From assembly GCA_016926735.1 (NCBI GenBank), contig JAFGOA010000092.1:1-20703 (forward strand): a DNA stretch of 20,703 nucleotides, in the 5' to 3' direction. The first letter of the stretch is position 1, and each line of letters starts with the position of its first letter. Shown piece after piece: positions 131 through 19,042 of the stretch. The stretch is from Promethearchaeota archaeon (GTDB lineage Archaea > Asgardarchaeota > Lokiarchaeia > Sigyniarchaeales > SOKP01). The translations under genes and the position numbers were made by a program. The notes under the pieces are model-generated. The model was given only the letters and a program-made list of their open reading frames with translations. It had not been told where the DNA came from and searched no databases.

Positions 131-300
131 TTAAAATATAAAAGAAATAATAATTTTCTTTTATAATCTTATTAATAAATATTGAAAAAGATTAAAATTA
201 TTCACAATCAAATCTAAATACTGGAAGATTATCATACTTAATGTATAAAAATTTTAGAAAATCAGATTATTTTTTTTTTATTATTATATTTATAGTAAAT

Positions 301-1155
301 ATGAGATTAGGAACACATGTAAGTATTACCGGAGGAAAATATAAAGCTCTAGAAAGAGGTAAAGAAATAGGATGTGAATCAATTCAAATATTTACAAGAA
401 GCGCTCGATCATGGTCTGCTAAACCTTTAGAACAAGAGGAGATTATTAAATTTAGAAAAATAAGAAAGCAACATAGTAATATTTGGCCGTTGATGTCTCA
501 TAATAGTTATTTAATTAACTTAGCTACAGAAGATAAGGATAAATTAGAAAAGTCATACAATGCCATGCTGGATGAACTTATCAAGGCAGATCAATTAAAC
601 CTAGATTATGTAAACATCCATCCAGGAAGCAAAAATCCAGAAGAAAGTGATATAATCGCTTTAAAAAGAATAGCTTTTCAAATAAATTCATTATTAGGAG
701 CTACTAATGAATCCAAAGTAATAATCTTATTAGAAACTACATCAGGACAAGGAAATTATCTAGGAAATAAATTTGAGCATCTTATAAATATAATTGACCA
801 TATTGAGAATAAAAAAAGAATAGGAATTACTTTTGATACATGTCATTCTTATACAGCTGGATATGATTTTACTACTTTTGAGACATATAATGAAATGTGG
901 GACACTTTCAATGAATTAATTGGATTTAATTATTTAAAAGCATTTCATCTCAATGATTCTATTGGAGAATTTAAATCCAATATTGATCGACATACTCATA
1001 TCGGAGAAGGACAAATAGGATTAGAAGCGTTTAAATATTTGATTAATGATAATAGATTTAAAGATTTGCCTGGAATATTAGAAACACCTAAGGGAAATGA
1101 TTTTTCTGATGATATTAAAAATTTAAATACTTTAAAATCTCTTAAAACTCATTAA
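301..1155 (+). CDS. nfo: Endonuclease IV (AP endonuclease family 2, deoxyribonuclease IV)
   Basis: MRLGTHVSI N-terminus, QIFTRSARSW, HNSYLINLA, HPG, LETTSGQG, DTCH, HLND, DRHTHIGEG and LETP metal-binding motifs. The start is placed at ATG 301 rather than 241. Confidence 0.95.
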   Translation: MRLGTHVSITGGKYKALERGKEIGCESIQIFTRSARSWSAKPLEQEEIIKFRKIRKQHSNIWPLMSHNSYLINLATEDKDKLEKSYNAMLDELIKADQLNLDYVNIHPGSKNPEESDIIALKRIAFQINSLLGATNESKVIILLETTSGQGNYLGNKFEHLINIIDHIENKKRIGITFDTCHSYTAGYDFTTFETYNEMWDTFNELIGFNYLKAFHLNDSIGEFKSNIDRHTHIGEGQIGLEAFKYLINDNRFKDLPGILETPKGNDFSDDIKNLNTLKSLKTH

Positions 1156-1160
1156 ATTTC

Positions 1161-2408
1161 TTATTCTTTTTCATTATATTTTTCTGGATTGACACATCGT
1201 TTCCAGGCATCGACAGTTTCTCTTGGACCTAAACCTATTATTAAATCTCCTTCTTGAAATGTAAAATCAGGTTTAAAACTATATATCCATAAATTCTCTC
1301 TTTTTAGAGCAATTATATGGAAACCTCGTTTATATCTCTTATCTTGTAATTTCTTATAGGTTTTATCCTTAAAAAAAGAATCACTTGATAAAGTTTCTCT
1401 TACTACGATTTCAGATGTTTCGGCGATAGCTTCTTGGAGTATCTTATGAGGTTCAAATCCTTTAACTATGCTTTCTGCTATATTTTGAGCTGCATCTGCA
1501 ATTTGTTCACAAGAAAATACAATTCTTAGAATACCTGTTAAATCTTTTGGATTATCAATATATCCTGCTAATTCTAGTAAATCTTTTTCGAAATTGATAT
1601 TAAGACCGTCTAACAATTCCTCCATTTCCAATACATCTTCAGCAACTTCATAATTTTTGAAAAAAAGAGATGCTAATGCCAATTCCGTCATAGTCTCTGA
1701 AATATCTGTTATCTTGACATAATTCATTTTTATATTTTTAAACATTTCTTGAATTTCTGGATTTGATAAATCAAAAACAGAATCTTTTTTTTCCCTTCCT
1801 AAATTAAATGAAATAGGTTCATAATCATGACAAACAGATTTTAATTCCATTAATGGCTCTAATTCTCCTTTAACTATGAGGCGGTCTTTATCTAAAATAA
1901 TATCATTATTTTCAAATGACCATTTATCTTTTCTTCTTATAGCTATTAGATCTACTCCATAATGAGAGCGAAAATGTATATTTTTTCTTTGTGCATTTAT
2001 AAAAGTACAACCTTCATTTACTTTAATTTTAACAATAGGTTCTGGTACGAAATCCCACATTAATTGTGTGAAATCAGCTATATCACTATTTATAAAAATA
2101 ACTCGTGCAATATCTGATAATGCATCTGAGATTTTATCGATTGAATATCCCATAACAACAATAGGTTCTAGTTCCTTTGCCTTTTCAAGACCGCCAGCTT
2201 GAGTTTGGATAATCTGAAAATTTAACAGGAAAGTTAACTCATGTATTTTCTGCTCTATTTTATATACTTCATTAGCTAATTCTTTACTACCAAATTTAAT
2301 AGCACTATAAGCTAGATCAATCATAAGATCTATATTTTGCTTCATTTGCTTTAAGATTTCTTTTAAGGATATCGGTTGGTATTTAAATTTCTTTTTAATT
2401 GGTGTCAT
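1161..2408 (-). CDS. PhoU-like helical bundle + TrkA-C (RCK_C) protein, internally duplicated; putative regulatory subunit of the adjacent cation transporter
   Basis: Two homologous halves (MKQNIDLMIDLAYSAI...EVYKIE / ITDISETMTELALASL...DVLEME), each followed by an RCK_C-like segment (GVDLIAIRRKDKW...DRLIVKG / GFHIIALKRENLW...GDLIIGLG). Lies downstream of MgtE-like genes, a known archaeal arrangement. Confidence 0.85.
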   Translation of the reverse strand: MTPIKKKFKYQPISLKEILKQMKQNIDLMIDLAYSAIKFGSKELANEVYKIEQKIHELTFLLNFQIIQTQAGGLEKAKELEPIVVMGYSIDKISDALSDIARVIFINSDIADFTQLMWDFVPEPIVKIKVNEGCTFINAQRKNIHFRSHYGVDLIAIRRKDKWSFENNDIILDKDRLIVKGELEPLMELKSVCHDYEPISFNLGREKKDSVFDLSNPEIQEMFKNIKMNYVKITDISETMTELALASLFFKNYEVAEDVLEMEELLDGLNINFEKDLLELAGYIDNPKDLTGILRIVFSCEQIADAAQNIAESIVKGFEPHKILQEAIAETSEIVVRETLSSDSFFKDKTYKKLQDKRYKRGFHIIALKRENLWIYSFKPDFTFQEGDLIIGLGPRETVDAWKRCVNPEKYNEKE

Positions 2409-2445
2409 ATTGTTTTTTTCTCTAATATTTTACTATTTTTTAATT

Positions 2446-2997
2446 TTATATAAATATTATGATAAATAATATAATCAGAAATGGACTTAAAAAATCAATA
2501 AGAGATGTGATAAATGGTATTAAAAAATTATTTGGATCTTTTCCTTTTTTAAATAACAAAATTGAAATCATAAACATCACGAGAAAAATAATTACAAACA
2601 TCACTACAACTGTTAAAATAATTATAATTAAAACTTCAATTAAATTCATAAGTTTCAGTTCCATATAATATGCTATTATATAACCCGCAGCAAGTAAAAT
2701 AATTAAACTTAATATTATAGTTAAAAATAACCCTATGAAATCTTCAATTAATCTTTGAGTTTTTTTAATACGAGGAGGGATAGAACCAATTAATAATTGA
2801 GTTGTTAATCTTGAAATCATGATTGTTGATATATCTCCAATTAAAGAATTAATAGCAGGGAGTGTAAGAAGAATAAATGGAATTGTATTAAGAATTTCAT
2901 CATTTGAAGATAGAAACGTACCTGTGACTATTCCTATTAAAGAAGAGATGAATACTATTATTATAGATTCCTTAATTATTTTTATGAAGTATTCCAT
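2446..2997 (-). CDS. MgtE/SLC41-type divalent cation transporter, membrane subunit B (about 5 TM)
   Basis: Hydrophobic. Carries PAINSLIGD (PxxxxxxGN-like) and GKDPNNFLIPFITSLID (DPxN..P..T...D) MgtE membrane motifs. Confidence 0.85.
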   Translation of the reverse strand: MEYFIKIIKESIIIVFISSLIGIVTGTFLSSNDEILNTIPFILLTLPAINSLIGDISTIMISRLTTQLLIGSIPPRIKKTQRLIEDFIGLFLTIILSLIILLAAGYIIAYYMELKLMNLIEVLIIIILTVVVMFVIIFLVMFMISILLFKKGKDPNNFLIPFITSLIDFLSPFLIILFIIIFI

Positions 2998-2998
2998 T

Positions 2999-3553
2999 TT
3001 AAGGGACCCCTAAAATAATTAAAGTTAAATAAAAAAAAACAACATTAAAAAAATCACCAATTGCTGTCATTATTGGGGGTATCACATTATTTGGGTTTAG
3101 TCCGAATTTAAACACAAGAGAATTTAATACTATAGAAATAACAATTACAAGCGATAAAGTAAATAACATTGATATTAATGGAATTAATATAAAAAATTCA
3201 AATGAGAAATATTCTAATTTAAAAAAAAAAAAATTAACGATAAAGGTAAATAATCCAATTAAACATGCAGTTGCTATAGCTAAAAGATATGTAGACAATA
3301 TATTTTCAATTATATTTCTTTTATTAAAATCTCCAATAATTAAATCTTTAGCTGTTCGGGCTATAAAAGGACTGCTTATATTTCCTCTAAGTGATAAGAG
3401 CGCGGGTATTAATAATATGAGGATTGGAAAACTTTTAAATTGTAATAAAAGAAGTGATAAGATTATTCCAGCTGCTAGAGACCCAATGATGGAAAGTGTT
3501 TCTGAGGGTAAAATTTCCTTAATAAGCGTGAATCTGGAATCTTCTCTTTCCAT
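2999..3553 (-). CDS. MgtE/SLC41-type divalent cation transporter, membrane subunit A (about 5 TM)
   Basis: PALLSLRGN and GLNPNNVIPPIMTAIGD motifs. Its stop is 1 nt from the next start (TAAAATG), suggesting translational coupling. Confidence 0.85.
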   Translation of the reverse strand: MEREDSRFTLIKEILPSETLSIIGSLAAGIILSLLLLQFKSFPILILLIPALLSLRGNISSPFIARTAKDLIIGDFNKRNIIENILSTYLLAIATACLIGLFTFIVNFFFFKLEYFSFEFFILIPLISMLFTLSLVIVISIVLNSLVFKFGLNPNNVIPPIMTAIGDFFNVVFFYLTLIILGVP

Positions 3554-3799
3554 ATACTAGCCCCTGTCATTTTCTTTGAATTATAATAATAAATCTTATT
3601 AGTATTTTCTAATATATAAAATTATAAATAATATTTAAAAATTATCTAAAGTGTAGTAAAAATCTTACATCAAATTTTTTAAAAAATTATGTAAATTTAA
3701 ATTAAACCCAATTAATTTTAAACTAAGTAAAGAAATAAGAATGTTCATTAAATTATTTAATTATAATCAATATTTTATATACTATTTACCTATCTGAGA

Positions 3800-5476
3800 T
3801 TAAAGATTCTCAATCCAATTAATATCTATCTTATTTAGAGCATTCTCTGATTCTTTTTTTATTTTCCAATCTAAATCTGTTAAAAGTTCTGCTAAAGGTT
3901 TGATTGCTTTTATATCACCAAGTTGACCAAGAGTTTTTATTGCAATAATTTTAATTTTGGAATCACTGTCTTTTAATGAATCAATAAGTAAATCAATATT
4001 TTCCTTGTCTCCTAATCGTCCTATTGCTCTAATCGCCCATTTTCTAATATGAATATCTTTATCATGAATAGATGATATCACAGAATTTAAAGTTTCTTTA
4101 GTTCCAATTTTCATTAATAAAATAATAGAACATCTTCTTAAACGCCAATCAGAATCATTTAATTTATCTTTTGCAAATAATATTATTTTAGGATTATGAA
4201 TTCTGGCTAAAGTATTTGTAGCAGCTATTCTTACTCTATTATTTTTATCTTGCATAAGTGGAATAAGTGCATCAATAATTATATTTTCTTGAATATTCTT
4301 AATATTTCCTAATATTTTTGAGACTGCTTTCCTAATTTGCCAATGAGGAGATTTTAACGCCTCTAACAATGTATTATCAATTTGATCTTGAGAAATTTTA
4401 ATTATGGAACTGATAGCCTTTTTCCTAATTTTTGAATTTTTACTATTTAAAGCTTTGATTAAATGATCTAAAGATTCCTTATTATTTATTATCCCCATAA
4501 GGCTTATATACCCAGCTCTTATGTTTATATTCTTATGTTCTAAATATTGGTATTGTGATTTGGTCATTTTTAAGTCACTGAATAGATTACTCAATGCTTT
4601 TATTACTTTCTTTCTTATTTTGAGATCTGAAGTTTTTAAAAGATTAGTCAGGGGCTTTATGGCGACCTTATTTCTAAGCTTTCCAAGTATCTGAATTGCT
4701 AAATATTTTACTTTCAAATTTTTATAATTAAGTAATTCAATTATTTTCTCAATTACATCAGTAGGGATTTCTTTTTTCATTAATGAATGAATTGTTTTAA
4801 GAGAATTTATTTTTACTATATCATCTTTATTACTCAATAATTGATATATTATTTCAATAGAAGCTGTATTTTTTATTTTTCTTAAAATTAATGGAATTGA
4901 TCTCCTGATATATATATTTTCATTATCTATATATGGATATATTAGATTAATTCCTTTATTTTTAATAATTTTTGATATTGAATCTATTATATCATACTTT
5001 ATCTCGTTTTTTCCATATCTTAGAAGCTCTATTAAATATTTAAGAGCCTTTTCATTTCCAATTCTTCCTAATTGAGAAATAGATAATTTTTTAATATCAA
5101 TATTAGAATCTTTTAATGAGTTAATTATAAATTCTATATTGGAATCATCTGGATTAATTTCAATCGATTTTAAAATTTCCATTCTAACTTTCCAATCCTT
5201 TTCTTTTTTATAATGTTCTTCTAAAAATTTTTTTCCTTTAAGAGTATAGAATAAATTTAATAATTCGATTAATTTAATCTTAACATTTGAATTCGTCTCC
5301 TTATTATATATGTATTTGATTTCATTAAAATGCGAATTATCATGAAATAAAATCAATTTTTCAATACATTTTATATTTCTTTCCCAAGAATTTGATGATT
5401 TTAAAAGGGAGTGTAGTTCAATGATTGCTTCTGAAGGTCCCATTTCATCAAATTTCTTAAAAATTAGATCATCCAT
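3800..5476 (-). CDS. HEAT-repeat (PBS lyase HEAT-like) alpha-solenoid protein
   Basis: Many ~31-aa repeats of the type L...L.D.D..(I/V)R..A...LG.(I/L)G...A(I/L)..L across nearly the whole 558 aa. Confidence 0.9.
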   Translation of the reverse strand: MDDLIFKKFDEMGPSEAIIELHSLLKSSNSWERNIKCIEKLILFHDNSHFNEIKYIYNKETNSNVKIKLIELLNLFYTLKGKKFLEEHYKKEKDWKVRMEILKSIEINPDDSNIEFIINSLKDSNIDIKKLSISQLGRIGNEKALKYLIELLRYGKNEIKYDIIDSISKIIKNKGINLIYPYIDNENIYIRRSIPLILRKIKNTASIEIIYQLLSNKDDIVKINSLKTIHSLMKKEIPTDVIEKIIELLNYKNLKVKYLAIQILGKLRNKVAIKPLTNLLKTSDLKIRKKVIKALSNLFSDLKMTKSQYQYLEHKNINIRAGYISLMGIINNKESLDHLIKALNSKNSKIRKKAISSIIKISQDQIDNTLLEALKSPHWQIRKAVSKILGNIKNIQENIIIDALIPLMQDKNNRVRIAATNTLARIHNPKIILFAKDKLNDSDWRLRRCSIILLMKIGTKETLNSVISSIHDKDIHIRKWAIRAIGRLGDKENIDLLIDSLKDSDSKIKIIAIKTLGQLGDIKAIKPLAELLTDLDWKIKKESENALNKIDINWIENL

Positions 5477-7025: not shown

Positions 7026-7344
7026 TTTCTAAAAATATACTAATATAAATTTATCTTGATTTTTTAATTAAATGAAAGTTATCTTGCTTTATTAATAAGT
7101 ACAATTTTTTCTTATTAATATTATGTTTAAGACATGAAGAATTATATATTTTGTTAAAAATAAATTAAACTAATTACCATATTAAATCTTTTAAATAATT
7201 CGAAAATGTGAAATAAAGATAAAAATAAATTTATAAAATTTTTATTCTTAATATATATAAATTTATATTTAAGGATTATATATTCTTTATAACATTAATT
7301 ATTAATAATTCAACTTTCTAAAATATTGAGGATTTGATAAAACC

Positions 7345-7983
7345 GTGGTTTCGGAAAAAAAGAAATTGAATCGTGTTATTAGTTTTTTAAAAAAAGGATT
7401 AGTAGGGTTAACTGATGATTTAGAAGAGACTGTTAAAAATATTAAAGCATTTATTGAGTCTTTAAATAAAGCAGAGAAAGACCTAAAAGAAGTAACCATT
7501 AAAGAAGAGGTTCAAACTGTTAGTACTTCATCTGCTCAAGTTGTTGCCCCGAGTACTACTGTAAAAACAGCAGCAGCCAGTACATTATTTAGTCTTTTAA
7601 GTGGTTCACAAGTAAGTCCTTTACCTGCGCCACCAGGTTCTATTTCAGCATCCGCAGCTCCAAGACCTCCATCCTCAGGTCCTCCTAGCGCACCATCTGG
7701 AGGAGGTCCACCTAGAGCACCGCCTGGAGGAGGTCCACCTAGAGCACCACCTGGAGGTGGCCCGCCTAGTGCACCACCAAGAGCACCAAATCTGCCTCCT
7801 GCACCAACCTTACCTGGAGGAGGTCCACCTAGAGCACCACCTGGAGGTGGCCCGCCTAGTGCACCACAAATGAGTCCTCAAGCACCACCTATGGCAGCTA
7901 AACCAGGAGGAGGGTTAAGCTCATTAAGAGATGAAATGTTGGATGAATTGAATAGACTAAAGAAAATAATGCGTGGAGAATAA
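7345..7983 (+). CDS. Coiled-coil / proline-rich protein with C-terminal WH2-like helix-LKK motif (WASP/VASP-like architecture; putative actin regulator)
   Basis: GTG start. Residues ~5-52 are an amphipathic heptad helix, followed by a S/T/A-rich linker, a Pro/Gly-rich region with GGGPP(R/S)APP repeats, and the C-terminus GGGLSSLRDEMLDELNRLKKIMRGE. The CDS is well supported; the function is inferred. Confidence 0.7.
   Translation: MVSEKKKLNRVISFLKKGLVGLTDDLEETVKNIKAFIESLNKAEKDLKEVTIKEEVQTVSTSSAQVVAPSTTVKTAAASTLFSLLSGSQVSPLPAPPGSISASAAPRPPSSGPPSAPSGGGPPRAPPGGGPPRAPPGGGPPSAPPRAPNLPPAPTLPGGGPPRAPPGGGPPSAPQMSPQAPPMAAKPGGGLSSLRDEMLDELNRLKKIMRGE
7697..7867 (+). repeat. Intragenic 27-bp coding repeat (GGGPPxAPP), including an exact 55-bp duplication
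   Basis: cctggaggaggtccacctagagcaccacctggaggtggcccgcctagtgcaccac occurs at 7723-7777 and 7813-7867. An additional unit starts at 7697. Confidence 0.95.
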
Positions 7984-8162: not shown

Positions 8163-8909
8163 ATGAATAAAAAATGCATTATGATAGATGATGAGTTTAA
8201 TATATTTTTAATTCCAAGACGTATAATGGTTTTTGCGGGTCATCCTGATGATGAAATAATATCTTGTGGTGGAACTTTACTAAAATATCAATCATTAGGA
8301 TCTGAAATTATTATTGTTACTGGATCTTATGGAATAGGAGGATATTCAGAGAATTCTAAGTATAAAGAAATAGAAAATCAGAGAATAGAAGAATTAAAAA
8401 ATATATCTGAATCATTAAATTGGAAATATATAAATCTAGGATATAATGATTTAGAAATCGAGAGAGAAAAAATAGCAAACATTTCAAAATTAATAATAAA
8501 TAACAAACCTCATATAATATTAGCACCTCATTATAAAGATCTTCATAGAATACATCGTAATTTTTCATTTATAATTAGAGAGAGTATATTTCATTGTTCT
8601 TTAGGAAATGCTTATGGATTAGAAAATAGACAATGGATTCCTTATGGATTTTATTACTATGAAACAATTTCATGCAAATTACAAGATATATCTAAATCTT
8701 CTTATATCATTGTTGATATCAGTGATTATTATAAGCGAAAGATAGAAATACTTTCTAAATTTTATAAATCACAAAAAAGTTTAATAGATAATTTCTCGGA
8801 TTGGATTATGAATACAGCTTCTTTAAGAGGATATGATATAAATAACCAATTTGGAGAAGCATTTATACCAGATACATCATATACTCCTTTAAAGCTAGTG
8901 TTAATTTAA
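8163..8909 (+). CDS. PIG-L / LmbE family N-acetylglucosaminyl deacetylase
   Basis: AGHPDDE..CGGTL metal-binding motif, R..E helix, PH..D.H..H, YKSQ and C-terminal GEAF. Confidence 0.9.
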   Translation: MNKKCIMIDDEFNIFLIPRRIMVFAGHPDDEIISCGGTLLKYQSLGSEIIIVTGSYGIGGYSENSKYKEIENQRIEELKNISESLNWKYINLGYNDLEIEREKIANISKLIINNKPHIILAPHYKDLHRIHRNFSFIIRESIFHCSLGNAYGLENRQWIPYGFYYYETISCKLQDISKSSYIIVDISDYYKRKIEILSKFYKSQKSLIDNFSDWIMNTASLRGYDINNQFGEAFIPDTSYTPLKLVLI

Positions 8910-8986: not shown

Positions 8987-10102
8987 ATGCCAAATTTAAC
9001 AATTGTTCTTGATATTGGTCAATTTAGTAGTAAATGTGGATTTTCAGGAGAAGATAATCCTTCGATGATATTTTTCACTATGGTTGGGACTCCAAAATAT
9101 CATGGATTTGCGGGTAAATTTACTAAACAGGAACAAGATTTATATGTTGGAGATGAAATTCAATCATTAGGACTTTACAAAATTGAGTATCCAATTCAAG
9201 AGGGAAAAATAACAGATTGGAAATTTTTCGAGAGAATTATTGATTATATATTTTATAACTTAAGAGTAGATCCAACACTTGTAAACGTACTTTTTGCAAT
9301 TCATCCATTATTCCCTAAACAAGATATTGAGAGACTATTTCATCTCTTTTTAGAACACTATCAATGTATGGCATTTTATCCTGTTTTAGATTCTATGTTA
9401 ACATTATATTCTGGAGGATTCCAAACAGGATTAGTAGTTGAAATAGGAGATAGTAGTACCAGAATAATTCCGATCTATGAGGGATATAAACTGAGCCATG
9501 CTATAAAAATTGTTAATATTGGAGGTCGAACCTTAACAAAATATATGGGAGATATTTTAAAGGATTCAATTGGATTCAATGTTGAATCATCAATTAGGAA
9601 AGAACTTGTAAGAGCTATTAAAGAAAAAGCTTGTTTTCTATCTTTAGACTATAATGAAGATCTAAAGAGAAGTGAACAATATAAAAAACAATATTCATTA
9701 CCAGATGGAGCAACAATAAATCTAAGTAAGGAGAGATTTATTGTACCAGAATTATTATTTAATCCCTCTTCTGAATTAGAATCTGATCCTTTACATAAAA
9801 TAATTTTAGATGTAATTGAAGAATGTGATTTGGATATTAGACCAAAACTTTTAAACAATATATTTCTTTCAGGAGGATCATCAATGTTCCCAAATATGAA
9901 GGCGAGATTATATCAAGAATTAGAATTAGAATTAACTAGAAGAAAAAAACAATATCAATCTATTCGAATAATGGCTCCTCGGGAAAGAATATATTCAGTA
10001 TGGACAGGTGGATCTATTTTAGCTATGATCCCAGAATTTTCAAATACTTGGGTAACGAGAGCAAAATATTTTGATCAAGGTATTCCAGAAGAATTATTAT
10101 AA
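8987..10102 (+). CDS. Actin-family protein (Asgard actin-related protein, divergent)
   Basis: Colinear with eukaryotic actin: VLDIGQFSSKCGFSGEDNP, YVGDE, YPIQEGKITDW, LRVDP, TGLVVEIGD, PIYEGYKLSHAI, GGRTLTKYM, VRAIKEKACF, YSLPDG, ERFIVPELLFNP, CDLDIRPKLLNNIFLSGGSSMFP, APRERIYSVWTGGSILA. Confidence 0.95.
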   Translation: MPNLTIVLDIGQFSSKCGFSGEDNPSMIFFTMVGTPKYHGFAGKFTKQEQDLYVGDEIQSLGLYKIEYPIQEGKITDWKFFERIIDYIFYNLRVDPTLVNVLFAIHPLFPKQDIERLFHLFLEHYQCMAFYPVLDSMLTLYSGGFQTGLVVEIGDSSTRIIPIYEGYKLSHAIKIVNIGGRTLTKYMGDILKDSIGFNVESSIRKELVRAIKEKACFLSLDYNEDLKRSEQYKKQYSLPDGATINLSKERFIVPELLFNPSSELESDPLHKIILDVIEECDLDIRPKLLNNIFLSGGSSMFPNMKARLYQELELELTRRKKQYQSIRIMAPRERIYSVWTGGSILAMIPEFSNTWVTRAKYFDQGIPEELL

Positions 10103-10229: not shown

Positions 10230-10610
10230 ATGAATATGGAAAACGTATCAAATTCAGAAATAAATTCAGATCAATTGATAAAACAATTTTATAAACCTGA
10301 TTATGATATATTATTCAATAAAATTAAAAGTATTAAAACTCCAATAAAGACAGATTTATTAAAAGCTCTCTTAGATGGTTCATGGCATTCAGAATTGGAA
10401 TTAATTAGAATTGCAAAAAAGCAAGAAAAATATGTAGGTACTGTAACTTTAGGTACAATTGTTCGTTCATTAAACCATGTTCTTACTAATGATTACGTTG
10501 AAAAAAAAATAATAAATGAAAAATTATTTTATAAATTATCTGATAATTATGTAGGATTGACAAGAGCAGCATATACCAAATATCAATATGTTAATCATAA
10601 ATTGGAATAA
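10230..10610 (+). CDS. Small winged helix-turn-helix protein, function unknown
   Basis: LLKALLDGSWHSELELIRIA (helix 1/2), GTVTLGTIVRSL (recognition helix) and YVEKKIINEKLFYKLS (beta wing). Confidence 0.65.
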   Translation: MNMENVSNSEINSDQLIKQFYKPDYDILFNKIKSIKTPIKTDLLKALLDGSWHSELELIRIAKKQEKYVGTVTLGTIVRSLNHVLTNDYVEKKIINEKLFYKLSDNYVGLTRAAYTKYQYVNHKLE

Positions 10611-17509: not shown

Positions 17510-19042
17510 TTAAAAAAATTTAATTTCGCTTGGCATCTTATCAAGATAATTCCTAAATTTTTCTGGCCAATCTTCTATATTAAATCCATGTTGGGCTAAA
17601 AAGACAGCAACCCATCGTTCTAATCCAATTCCTGTACAACCACTCCAAATAATTTTCTTTTTTTGATTTTTTAAGTTAAATGCTTTGATATATTTATCAC
17701 CAACAATAGAAAAATTCTGAAATTCTAACCATTCACTTTCTTCTCTGCTTCCCCTATAAGGCAACCATGCTTCATAATCAATAGTTCCTAATTGTCCTTC
17801 TATTGTCTCTTCTTTAAAAAGATCACCTGCTTGTTGCATATAGAAAGGAGTTACACTAGCCATTCTCCATTCAATTTCAAGAATATCATTAAAAATTTTC
17901 TTATATTTATCCATAAATTTCTTTTGAATATCGATTAAATTATTTGGTTCTCCAATAAAAACAACTTCTATACGATGAAATTCATCTACCCGTTCTATTC
18001 CATGTCTACCACCCGATTCATAACGAAACGAATTTGTTGTTTTTTCGAAGAGTAATATTGGAAATGATTCATCTGAAATTGTTTTACCTTTAAACGCCCA
18101 ATATATTGAAGGACATTGAGCATATACAAGTCCTTTTAATGGTTCTAATTGTATCATATTTTTAAGTTCATCATAAGGAATTTCTTGGGTAATTTTAATT
18201 AAATCAATAAAATATTCCCATTCTTTTGTGTTTCGAGTTCTTGGTTCTGCTACATAATAAATTTCCATAGGCATACCTTCAAGATGACCTGTTTTTATCC
18301 ACACATCTTCTCCTGATACAATGTTTGAATTCTTAATTTCGTTAAATCCCAATGGTTTTAATAATTCCTCTAAAACAATTTTTTCCAAAGTATTAAAAAT
18401 ATTTGTTGCTGGGGGCCAATAAATCCATTTTCCTTTGGTCGATGCTGGAGCTATCCAATTCTTCTTTACCATCTCGATAGTTGGATCATCTTTTATTTTT
18501 ATTTCCTTTCTTGGACTTTCATAAAGAATTTTGTGATATTCTGCCTTTCCTTCATAATATGATCTATCAATTTTTTCTTTAATTCTCTTAATAATCCTTT
18601 CTACGTTTCCTTTTGTGATAAAATTTTTATCTACTTTATTAATCTCAATTGAACATGTCTTGTTATTATTATTAATATTGATTTTATCAATGAAAGGAAT
18701 AGAGATTTCTTCTTGAGGTAATTTTTCTAAAGGAAAATTTATATTCAACAGTTCAATTTCAAGTGAACTGATACCTATATGTAATTCTTTGCCTATATGT
18801 TCAGCGAGAGTCTTTCGTATACGATAAAATATTATATGCGCGGATTTATTTTCTGTATTTATTTCTCCTTTGATCGACTTATCATCTGATATTTCATATT
18901 TAGATTTATAGTTTATTTCATCCAAATTCTTAAATCCTTTTAATATTTCATTTTCAGCTTTCTTAAGAAACTCAAAAACCTTCTCTTTATATTGAGAAAT
19001 ATCCTTATTAAATACAATTTTTCCTATTAGTTTATATTTCAT
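17510..19042 (-). CDS. serS: Serine--tRNA ligase, methanogen-type (SerRS2, Zn-dependent)
   Basis: Long alpha/beta N-terminal domain. AQCP (Zn-binding Cys), motif 2 FRYESGGRHGIERVDEFHRIE, WLEFQN, and motif 3 WSGCTGIGLERW. Confidence 0.95.
   Translation of the reverse strand: MKYKLIGKIVFNKDISQYKEKVFEFLKKAENEILKGFKNLDEINYKSKYEISDDKSIKGEINTENKSAHIIFYRIRKTLAEHIGKELHIGISSLEIELLNINFPLEKLPQEEISIPFIDKININNNNKTCSIEINKVDKNFITKGNVERIIKRIKEKIDRSYYEGKAEYHKILYESPRKEIKIKDDPTIEMVKKNWIAPASTKGKWIYWPPATNIFNTLEKIVLEELLKPLGFNEIKNSNIVSGEDVWIKTGHLEGMPMEIYYVAEPRTRNTKEWEYFIDLIKITQEIPYDELKNMIQLEPLKGLVYAQCPSIYWAFKGKTISDESFPILLFEKTTNSFRYESGGRHGIERVDEFHRIEVVFIGEPNNLIDIQKKFMDKYKKIFNDILEIEWRMASVTPFYMQQAGDLFKEETIEGQLGTIDYEAWLPYRGSREESEWLEFQNFSIVGDKYIKAFNLKNQKKKIIWSGCTGIGLERWVAVFLAQHGFNIEDWPEKFRNYLDKMPSEIKFF

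Follow-up and report, generated by a model that had tools for sequence, protein, structure and literature searches.

The adaptor protein encoded at positions 7345..7983 (forward strand) of contig JAFGOA010000092.1, from a Promethearchaeota archaeon (GenBank assembly GCA_016926735.1), belongs to a family of proteins that combine an N-terminal coiled-coil helix, a long proline-rich arm and an almost invariant C-terminal helix. The whole stretch of DNA that was analysed, referred to here as the window, comprises 20,703 nucleotides, with a G+C content of about 19-36%. The adaptor gene starts with GTG, stops with TAA and codes for 212 amino acids, as defined by the list of open reading frames (ORFs), the DNA itself and the homologues. 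The best explanation of these features, to which we give slightly better than an even chance, is that the adaptor is an oligomeric, largely disordered cytosolic tether which displays its C-terminal helix to a conserved partner. At the level of sequence this is a new family, whereas in design it varies a known kind of protein, the oligomeric scaffold that is disordered and carries short linear motifs.

A sequence-only reading of the same DNA had described an N-terminal heptad helix, the motif ASTLFSLLSG, a Pro/Gly-rich stretch with five GGGPP(R/S)AP units and the terminal peptide GGGLSSLRDEMLDELNRLKKIMRGE. All of these elements are present, and the tripartite architecture that was proposed from them is real and conserved across the family. 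The same reading took the terminal peptide for a WH2-like, actin-binding motif, which is a different matter and is discussed below.

Architecture and conservation of the family

In a word-indexed search, 8000 candidates were scored, and 227 proteins reached E ≤ 0.01. Among the matches listed (120), the proteins are 176-267 amino acids long, are called 'hypothetical protein' where they are named at all, and come from metagenome-assembled genomes labelled Promethearchaeota, Lokiarchaeota, Thor-, Odin-, Hermod- or Hodarchaeota. When one genome per GTDB species was scanned, 111 of 151 pattern matches were confirmed by tblastn, which places the family in at least 111 Promethearchaeota-type genomes. 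The best 80 of these 111 tblastn-confirmed matches (L001-L080) and the window make up a set of 81 sources; the 80 loci were picked up through C-terminal peptide patterns, and the set is therefore biased towards an intact helix. When the six-frame translations of the 81 sources were scanned with a strict motif, each source held exactly one copy. The family ORF was called and clustered in 75 of them, with a protein length of 204-257 amino acids, and these 75 ORFs underlie the motif counts given below. Independent evidence for the presence of the helix is provided by whole-protein profile matches: an exhaustive search of 1.84 billion representatives with the profile of a 32-sequence family alignment (A1) gave 58 matches at E ≤ 0.001, many of which are divergent full-length relatives with the coil, the pattern AA..L..LL.G, a Pro-rich arm and the terminal helix.

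The adaptor matches no Pfam family at E ≤ 0.01 and no NCBIfam model. With the Pfam threshold relaxed to E ≤ 10, the only matches were coiled-coil noise below threshold, confined to the N-terminal helix, and the last 40 residues matched nothing; the matches to DUF948, Flagellin_C, EzrA, Nuf2 and others in this region (E 0.004-0.5, below gathering scores) were set aside as generic coiled-coil similarity. A profile search of the PDB with the family alignment at E ≤ 10 revealed no related chain; a Fab chain and Med7 of Mediator, which aligned with the N-terminal helix at a best E of 1.4, were its only matches and were dismissed as chance. The ESM Atlas returned only the adaptor's own unnamed cluster, which has 357 members (99% Archaea, with Promethearchaeota as the commonest phylum) and no Pfam family. 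Longer proteins sharing the C-terminal region were also sought; none of seven word-sharing candidates reached E ≤ 10, and no fused form was found in this way. Neither a description of the family nor its motif strings were found in the accessible portions of the literature on Asgard actin regulators. The family thus appears, from these searches, to be previously undescribed and confined to Asgard archaea (Promethearchaeota) as far as the sources are labelled. The organism labels are the depositors' own and may overstate how widely the close family is really distributed, because the records labelled Thor-, Odin-, Hermod- and Hodarchaeota share gene order with those labelled Promethearchaeota. 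A separate case is locus L027 (DATKTW010000083.1), which is titled 'Candidatus Nanopelagicaceae bacterium', an actinobacterial label, and yet carries a full Asgard-type locus with the same gene order; this contig is probably mis-binned or mislabelled.

The adaptor gene is a real gene and not a chance low-complexity ORF. Within its last 25 codons, the invariant Leu and Arg residues are encoded by up to six synonyms each across the family, and the peptide varies in the 75 ORFs only at S/G192, D/E200, N/T203 and E/D212. Since the residues are fixed while synonymous codons vary freely, strong purifying selection acts on the C-terminal peptide and not on the DNA. The same pattern rules out a low-complexity artefact, an RNA element and an overlapping gene. 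For comparison, the type IA topoisomerases encoded in these loci share 47-94% identity (median 56%) with the window copy. Nothing supports an antisense ORF of 65 amino acids (7302..7499), which lies across the part of the gene that codes for the strongly conserved N-terminus. Translation of the family starts at GTG in 36 ORFs, at TTG in 33 and at ATG in only 6; this nearly general avoidance of ATG represents an unusually consistent use of weak start codons. A Shine-Dalgarno-like GAGG lies 5-20 nucleotides upstream of the start in 71 of the 75 ORFs, and one is also found upstream of the window gene.

The N-terminal helix (residues 4-50; 7354..7494, on the forward strand, as are all the elements of the adaptor that follow) is the presumed oligomerisation element. 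Its heptad runs without breaks, with L, I, V, M or F at 11 of the 14 a/d positions as compared with 15% of the other positions, and none of 5000 shuffles matched this a/d contrast. Hydrophobic a/d positions over at least four heptads, the generic mark of a coiled coil, are thus found in residues 4-50. AlphaFold2 (AF2), run on the A1 alignment, places a single helix at residues 4-48 with a predicted local distance difference test (pLDDT) score of about 88-92, and the invariant A1 columns in this region include K6, K7, R10, G18, D24, S39, K42 and D46. The oligomer claimed in the earlier reading is plausible because the N-terminal helix has a true coiled-coil heptad.

In A1, little or no variation is seen in the N-terminal helix, TVSTSS, AASTLFSLLSG, NLPPAPKLPP and the C-terminus, and the Pro-rich parts vary in both length and sequence. 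TVSTSS occupies residues 58-63 (7516..7533), of which T58, S60, S62 and S63 are invariant in A1, and the related pattern T[VE]S[TS]SS occurs in 73 of the 75 ORFs. It is followed by KTAAASTLFSLLSG (residues 74-87; 7564..7605), a second short amphipathic motif of LxxLL type recognised by family conservation and by the AF2 model, in which helix 73-85 has low confidence (pLDDT about 55). This stretch includes ASTLFSLLSG at residues 78-87; AA.TLF.LLS is kept in 74 of 75 ORFs and AA..L..LL.G in divergent representatives. The arm proper (residues 89-187; 7609..7905) is predicted to be disordered from its composition, its repeats and its low pLDDT (43-58). It contains 38 Pro, 17 Gly and 15 Ala in 99 residues, with five GGGPP[RS]AP units at residues 119, 128, 137, 158 and 167, and no PPP run is found in the adaptor sequence. 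At the DNA level the Pro-rich part is a degenerate tandem array, with a 27-nucleotide period in 6.7 copies (7677-7867) and also a 90-nucleotide period in 2.1 copies. Within the arm lies the proline motif NLPPAPTLP (residues 149-157; 7789..7815), which reads NLPPAPKLPP in most relatives; L150, P151, P152, A153, P154 and P157 are nearly invariant in A1, and 72 of the 75 ORFs contain LPP[AP]P[KTR][LP]. A further element, FAKR, occurs in 68 of the 75 ORFs and is missing from the window protein and six others. The sublineage of the window, without this FAKR(P) segment, comprises the window, L001, L002 and L011, plus L012, L041 and L059.

The protein ends with GGG and the invariant amphipathic helix LSSLRDEMLDELNRLKKIMRGE, or 'LRDEML' module (residues 188-212; 7906..7980), which was recognised by conservation and by the AF2 model; the full C-terminal pattern is present in all 75 ORFs. 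The model has a predicted template modelling (pTM) score of 0.22 and consists of three helices, the remainder being below pLDDT 60. The C-terminal helix spans residues 191-209 and is continuous through LKKIM, with pLDDT 82-93. On a helical wheel drawn by hand, L191, L194, M198, L202, L205 and M209 form the hydrophobic face, with E197, E201, R204 and K206 alongside. A membrane-targeting amphipathic helix was considered and rejected by inference, given a net charge of about zero, five acidic residues and no aromatics.

The terminal helix and its occurrence in other proteins

The C-terminal helix is not restricted to the adaptor family. Over 23 family representatives and 19 instances from a second family, its core reads L-R-[DNQE]-E-M-L-x-E-L-x-R-L-K-x-[IV]-[ML]. 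The second family (P0151, P0154, P0156, P0160, P0165 and P0176-P0181) carries two strict helix copies per protein, with Pro-rich linkers between them, and a weaker third copy is visible in P0154 and P0165. In P0154, P0160 and P0165 (354-366 amino acids) the helix copies are followed by a Cys4 ribbon (CPxCG...CCxCF) and a C-terminal domain. P0151 (349 amino acids) has a Ras-family domain in front (Pfam 5.5e-10), then two helix copies and then the ribbon, and P0156 (158 amino acids), which may be a fragment, has two strict copies and no ribbon. A search with P0165 recovered 9 proteins, one of them labelled Sigynarchaeota. In addition, the helix is combined with a Pro-rich region in two other architectures, preceded by a Cys-rich N-terminus in P0169 and by a transmembrane segment and a coil in P0164. 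A separate observation concerns P0122 (549 amino acids), in which an N-terminal transmembrane segment, a whole family protein with a slightly altered helix and a TIR_2 domain (6.3e-18) are joined; these parts either are genuinely fused or were run together by read-through in the gene call.

The C-terminal domain of the second family, which together with the ribbon follows the helix copies in most members, was modelled by AF2 on an alignment of 11 rows, with pLDDT 83-92 over approximately residues 230-363. Foldseek comparison of this model retrieved the longin domains of Ykt6, Sec22b and VAMP7 and the longin subunits of TRAPP and GATOR1 (E from 4.8e-4, TM-score to target 0.63-0.76), and the PDB matches include the longin-peptide complexes 4afi and 2vx8. 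A free C-terminus is not required by the helix, because it is internal in the second-family proteins. Since the same helix occurs in longin/zinc-ribbon and Ras-like proteins, it can be considered a portable and more general module, whose probable role, judging from the sequences, is that of a ligand.

The WH2 domain (PF02205), as found in WASP, WAVE, WIP and thymosin-beta4, is one of the known elements closest to the helix, which the sequence-only reading had called WH2-like. The canonical domain consists of an amphipathic helix of two to three turns, a linker of four to five residues and an extended LKK[TV]. The adaptor resembles it in having an amphipathic helix and L-K-K-[IV] after a proline-rich region, arranged in tandem in the second family. 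Nevertheless, no match to PF02205 was obtained at E ≤ 10 with hmmscan against Pfam-A (whole protein, residues 1-95, last 40 amino acids and three relatives), a search in which the motif is short and the HMMER filters drop most matches above about 0.1, and no WH2-bearing chain appeared in the PDB profile search at E ≤ 10. Where a short helix followed by LKK(T/V) had been proposed, AF2 gives one continuous helix of 19 residues, a result that applies to the free protein only. Between L202 and L205 there are just two residues (N203 and R204), and the hydrophobic spacing stays in helical register (L205, I208, M209); the spacer is about three residues below the WH2 consensus, a shortness that the earlier reading had itself conceded.

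The conservation of LKK in homologues, on which that reading had made its proposal depend, is seen within the close family, where LKKI is invariant in all 75 ORFs; beyond it, the second Lys is not kept throughout. Position 206 is Lys in 22 of 23 family representatives and in 11 of 19 second-family instances (Q, E, R or N in the other 8), whereas position 207 is Lys in 14 of 23 and in none of 19, respectively, with Arg in 10 of the latter. Two more reservations of that reading, Pro runs of only PP and the lack of an acidic-Trp tail, are borne out both in the sequence and in the family: a PPP run is found in only 8 of the 75 ORFs, no Trp occurs in any of them, and there is no Central/acidic region, as the protein ends three residues after the helix (RGE). 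Because there is no profile match, the predicted helix is continuous, the spacer is short, the second basic residue is lost in distant relatives and no acidic-Trp tail follows, the helix is not filed as WH2, and neither the sequence comparisons nor the model support its identity as a bona fide member of that class. Failed membership in WH2 may still leave room for binding to an actin fold. A complex prediction that paired the neighbouring actin paralogue (alignment A2, 34 rows) with adaptor residues 173-212 (A1) gave an ipSAE of 0.00 twice, which speaks neither for nor against binding.

Only one WH2-like element has been described so far in Asgard archaea, according to the accessible text of the studies concerned: the LKKT-type motif of the two-domain gelsolins, which appears as LRRV, LKHV, LVDV or LKDV, has a four-residue signature of L, two basic residues and V/T, and lies in an extended linker between the two gelsolin domains (PMC9433394; bioRxiv 10.1101/2025.11.30.690169). 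The adaptor has no gelsolin domain, and its LKKI lies inside a predicted helix.

Gene neighbourhood

In the window, the genes are ordered as follows: a HEAT-repeat protein and a secreted or membrane protein on the reverse strand; the adaptor, a PIG-L deacetylase, an actin-family protein and a 126-amino-acid protein on the forward strand; and two small membrane proteins, a topoisomerase and a PAS histidine kinase on the reverse strand. Over the 81 sources, the clusters of these genes are present in 78 (actin-family), 74 (126-amino-acid protein), 74 (topoisomerase), 64 (PAS histidine kinase) and 52 (PIG-L) cases. The stable core consists of the adaptor, the PIG-L gene in part of the loci, the actin paralogue, the 126-amino-acid protein and the topoisomerase. 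The actin-like neighbour pointed out in the sequence-only reading is an almost constant feature: in 78 sources the sequence continues for 2.5 kb or more beyond the motif, and all but one of these (77) have an actin-family gene downstream within 6 kb on the same strand, at 147-4955 nucleotides from the adaptor motif (median 928). The upstream neighbour varies, with cluster 7 in 40 sources, cluster 6 (phosphoribosyltransferase-like) in 11 and others in 22. The gap between the adaptor and the next gene is at least 71 nucleotides. An operon with the actin gene is unsupported, given gaps of 125-4933 bp where the actin gene follows without PIG-L and the insertion of PIG-L in 52 of 81 sources. In L032, the adaptor and PIG-L genes are followed by four unclustered ORFs, which may reflect a rearrangement or an assembly join.

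The actin-family paralogue (8987..10102, forward strand) has 371 amino acids and matches the Pfam Actin family with 282.5 bits. Its best PDB match is 'HC1 actin' (292 bits), eukaryotic actins score 266-281 bits, and the alignment is collinear over residues 5-365; identity across the loci ranges from 69 to 98%, with a median of 72%. Lokiactin shares 58% identity with rabbit actin according to the available part of one report (PMC12050087), and Lokiarchaeum ossiferum has, in the accessible text of another, one Lokiactin and three paralogues that cluster with actin-related proteins (ARPs) (PMC9834061). The bit scores of the window protein are modest, and for this reason it is read as a probable ARP-like paralogue and not as Lokiactin itself.

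Directly after the actin paralogue lies the gene of a putative winged-helix protein of 126 amino acids (10230..10610, forward strand), for which no Pfam, NCBIfam or clear PDB match was found. Its nearest ESM Atlas clusters include 'putative HTH arsR-type' (helix-turn-helix; 0.97), and it has a weak PDB match to the partition protein AspA (E = 0.11). An actin-fold ATPase followed by a small, possibly DNA-binding protein resembles the ParM/ParR-type cassettes, by analogy only.

The PIG-L family deacetylase (8163..8909, forward strand; PF02585, 6.7e-19) is probably unrelated to the adaptor finding; where present, it separates the adaptor from the actin paralogue, a facultative insert in a gene order that is fixed in other respects. 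Two genes upstream of the adaptor lies the HEAT-repeat protein of 558 amino acids (3800..5476, reverse strand), which consists nearly entirely of such repeats, with a HEAT_2 match of 1e-63 and a weak Adaptin_N match of 7e-11, above the gathering score of 37; of the 81 sources, 18 have a member of its cluster. Farther away, a class II aminoacyl-tRNA synthetase of 510 amino acids (17510..19042, reverse strand) was recognised by the Pfam families tRNA_bind_4 and tRNA-synt_2b; its best match is a methanogen-type serine--tRNA ligase (NF002120, 463 bits, under the 611-bit cut-off).

Candidate partners of the helix and their meaning

As we picture it, the N-terminal coiled coil of 45 residues would make the adaptor an oligomer, as its heptad pattern suggests. 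From each chain would extend a Pro/Gly/Ala-rich arm of 100-130 residues carrying TVSTSS, AAxTLFxLLSG and NLPPAPKLPP, and FAKRP in most relatives but not here. The arm would end in the almost invariant amphipathic helix of 20 residues, which may dock as a helix onto a conserved partner. The oligomer would then present several copies of the helix on long flexible arms, that is, it would act as an avidity tether. Comparable combinations of an oligomeric or polymeric anchor, a long disordered linker of variable length and a highly conserved terminal peptide for recruiting partners are found in FtsZ, with its linker and C-terminal peptide, and in the ribosomal stalk proteins P1/P2. The adaptor has no sequence relation to them, and differs in that its anchor is a simple coiled coil and its arm has extra conserved motifs.

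Several observations weigh against this explanation. The constant presence of the helix is partly circular, the loci having been found through C-terminal peptide patterns, and the AF2 helices in short conserved segments may mirror alignment conservation rather than a bound state. With a hydrophobic moment of 0.45, which 378 of 5000 shuffles equal or exceed, the C-terminal helix is unremarkable in its amphipathicity; the mark of this helix is its conservation. As for the neighbourhood, L032 is an exception with no actin gene in the 4.2 kb downstream, and the actin gene sits inside a larger syntenic block. The link to actin is weak, because that block also keeps the topoisomerase and the histidine kinase, and inherited synteny with separate transcription could equally account for the adjacency, because the core includes plainly unrelated genes and the gaps are wide. 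None of the tests made picked out a binding partner for the helix. If the tether has a partner, the first candidate is an actin-fold protein, bound in any mode, that is, the paralogue 0.15-5 kb downstream or Lokiactin; this is a reasonable possibility that stays well below an even chance. Roughly the same likelihood attaches to a longin, a GTPase or a trafficking protein as the partner, which can be proposed only tentatively.

Four other accounts of the helix compete with the tether and its candidate partners. The one given in the sequence-only reading, in which the helix binds G-actin in a WH2-like manner, the arm recruits profilin-actin, and a WASP- or Ena/VASP-like oligomer nucleates or elongates Lokiactin or activates the paralogue, seems to us unlikely. 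It has in its favour an analogous layout, with an oligomerising coil, a Pro-rich arm and an amphipathic end helix with LKK[IV], the invariance of LKKI in the close homologues and the actin-family gene downstream in nearly all loci. The tandem helices of the second family, with their Pro-rich linkers, likewise recall the tandem-WH2 nucleators Spire and Cobl. Ena/VASP proteins are composed of EVH1, a Pro-rich region and EVH2 with a tetramerising coiled coil, and the adaptor shares with them an oligomerising coiled coil, a Pro-rich region and short actin-type motifs. In the adaptor, on the other hand, the coil is N-terminal and not C-terminal, Pro runs are only PP, and neither EVH1 or any other Pfam domain nor profilin-type polyproline runs were found. 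To this must be added the WH2 tests described above (the absence of PF02205 and WH2-chain matches at E ≤ 10, the continuous helix, the missing linker residues, the variable Lys positions and the lack of Trp), together with the companion domains of the second family, longin and Ras-like, which are not typical actin regulators. Profilin ligands have longer Pro runs than the PP dipeptides of the adaptor. The literature points both ways: Asgard gelsolins use LKKT-like motifs on actin (Akil 2022, PMC9433394, in its accessible part), polyproline motifs are widespread in Asgard proteins, and the profilins of Heimdall and Thor bind polyproline weakly, but those of Loki and Odin are reported not to bind the polyproline of VASP (Survery 2021, PMC8410842, likewise in its accessible part).

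A better prospect, although still a doubtful one, is that the helix is the ligand of a trafficking or GTPase-regulatory hub, such as a longin or roadblock-type groove or a small GTPase, with the adaptor linking this hub to other proteins through its proline motifs and with the actin adjacency being inherited synteny. The longin domains of VAMP7 and Ykt6 bind helical peptides both in cis and in trans, and the helix recurs in proteins with a Cys4 ribbon and a longin domain, and in one with a Ras-family domain. The Sigynarchaeota label of one second-family member makes that family Asgard as well, and the functionally unrelated genes of the syntenic block also fit this account. Nonetheless, sharing a polypeptide does not show binding, and AF2 gave pLDDT 41-59 for the motif helices of the second family, with no confident docking on the longin domain. 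The C-terminal position of a Leu/Arg/Lys-rich amphipathic helix behind a flexible Pro-rich linker, ending in R-L-K-K-I-M-R, is also reminiscent of the MIM1 helices of ESCRT-III, likewise portable ligands, which would recruit the MIT domain of Vps4 or of another MIT protein; the sequence-only reading had named binding to a MIT domain among the outcomes that would refute its proposal. The MIM1 consensus, (D/E)xxLxxRLxxL(K/R), stands at the C-terminus of an ESCRT-III core; the adaptor has no such core, and no register of residues 191-212 fits the Leu/Arg pattern by eye. Moreover, the PDB profile search at E ≤ 10 contained no ESCRT-III or MIT-complex chain, there is no Snf7/ESCRT-III match in Pfam, and no ESCRT gene was found in the window or among the clustered locus ORFs. 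Even though Asgard Vps2/24/46 carry Leu/Ile-rich, MIM1-like C-terminal helices (Lu 2020, PMC7240154, in its accessible part), this identity is the least probable of all those considered. Only a little credit is due, finally, to a helix that needs no separate receptor and forms a homotypic or heterotypic zipper, or folds back on the N-terminal coil. The 3-4 hydrophobic spacing with conserved flanking charges (E197, E201, R204, K206) has the look of a pairing code, and the second family repeats the motif in tandem. A stable coiled coil can barely be built from three heptads alone, though, the AF2 monomer has no compact packing of the C-terminal on the N-terminal helix, and nearly all 22 positions are invariant, including the solvent face, which exceeds the needs of a zipper.

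The tether explanation has a more specific form, in which the adaptor would be the first archaeal nucleation-promoting or elongation factor: the coiled-coil oligomer would engage Lokiactin, or else the adjacent paralogue, at the barbed-end cleft through a helix non-homologous to WH2, AAxTLFxLLSG would perhaps bind as well, and the proline motifs would bind further regulators. We regard this form as distinctly improbable. Profilins and gelsolins are the regulators of actin that have been described to date in Asgard archaea, and no nucleator or elongation factor is mentioned in the accessible parts of the corresponding reports (PMC9433394, PMC8410842, PMC9834061, PMC12962969, PMC12050087, PMC12993045, bioRxiv 10.1101/2025.11.30.690169). 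Were this form of the explanation true, actin assembly would be coupled to membrane trafficking under GTPase control by way of the longin and Ras-like proteins that carry the helix, and the WASP/WAVE-GTPase logic would have a counterpart that predates eukaryotes.

The interest of the family does not depend on this form of the hypothesis. A eukaryote-style scaffold stands beside an actin paralogue, and its helix is reused in longin- and GTPase-type proteins. The helix of 22 residues offers a precise bait for a conserved hub protein in cultured Lokiarchaea. Should the partner be actin, the finding would bear directly on the origin of regulated actin assembly before eukaryotes; whatever the partner, Asgard archaea would be shown to build interaction networks from short linear motifs, a practice usually regarded as eukaryotic.

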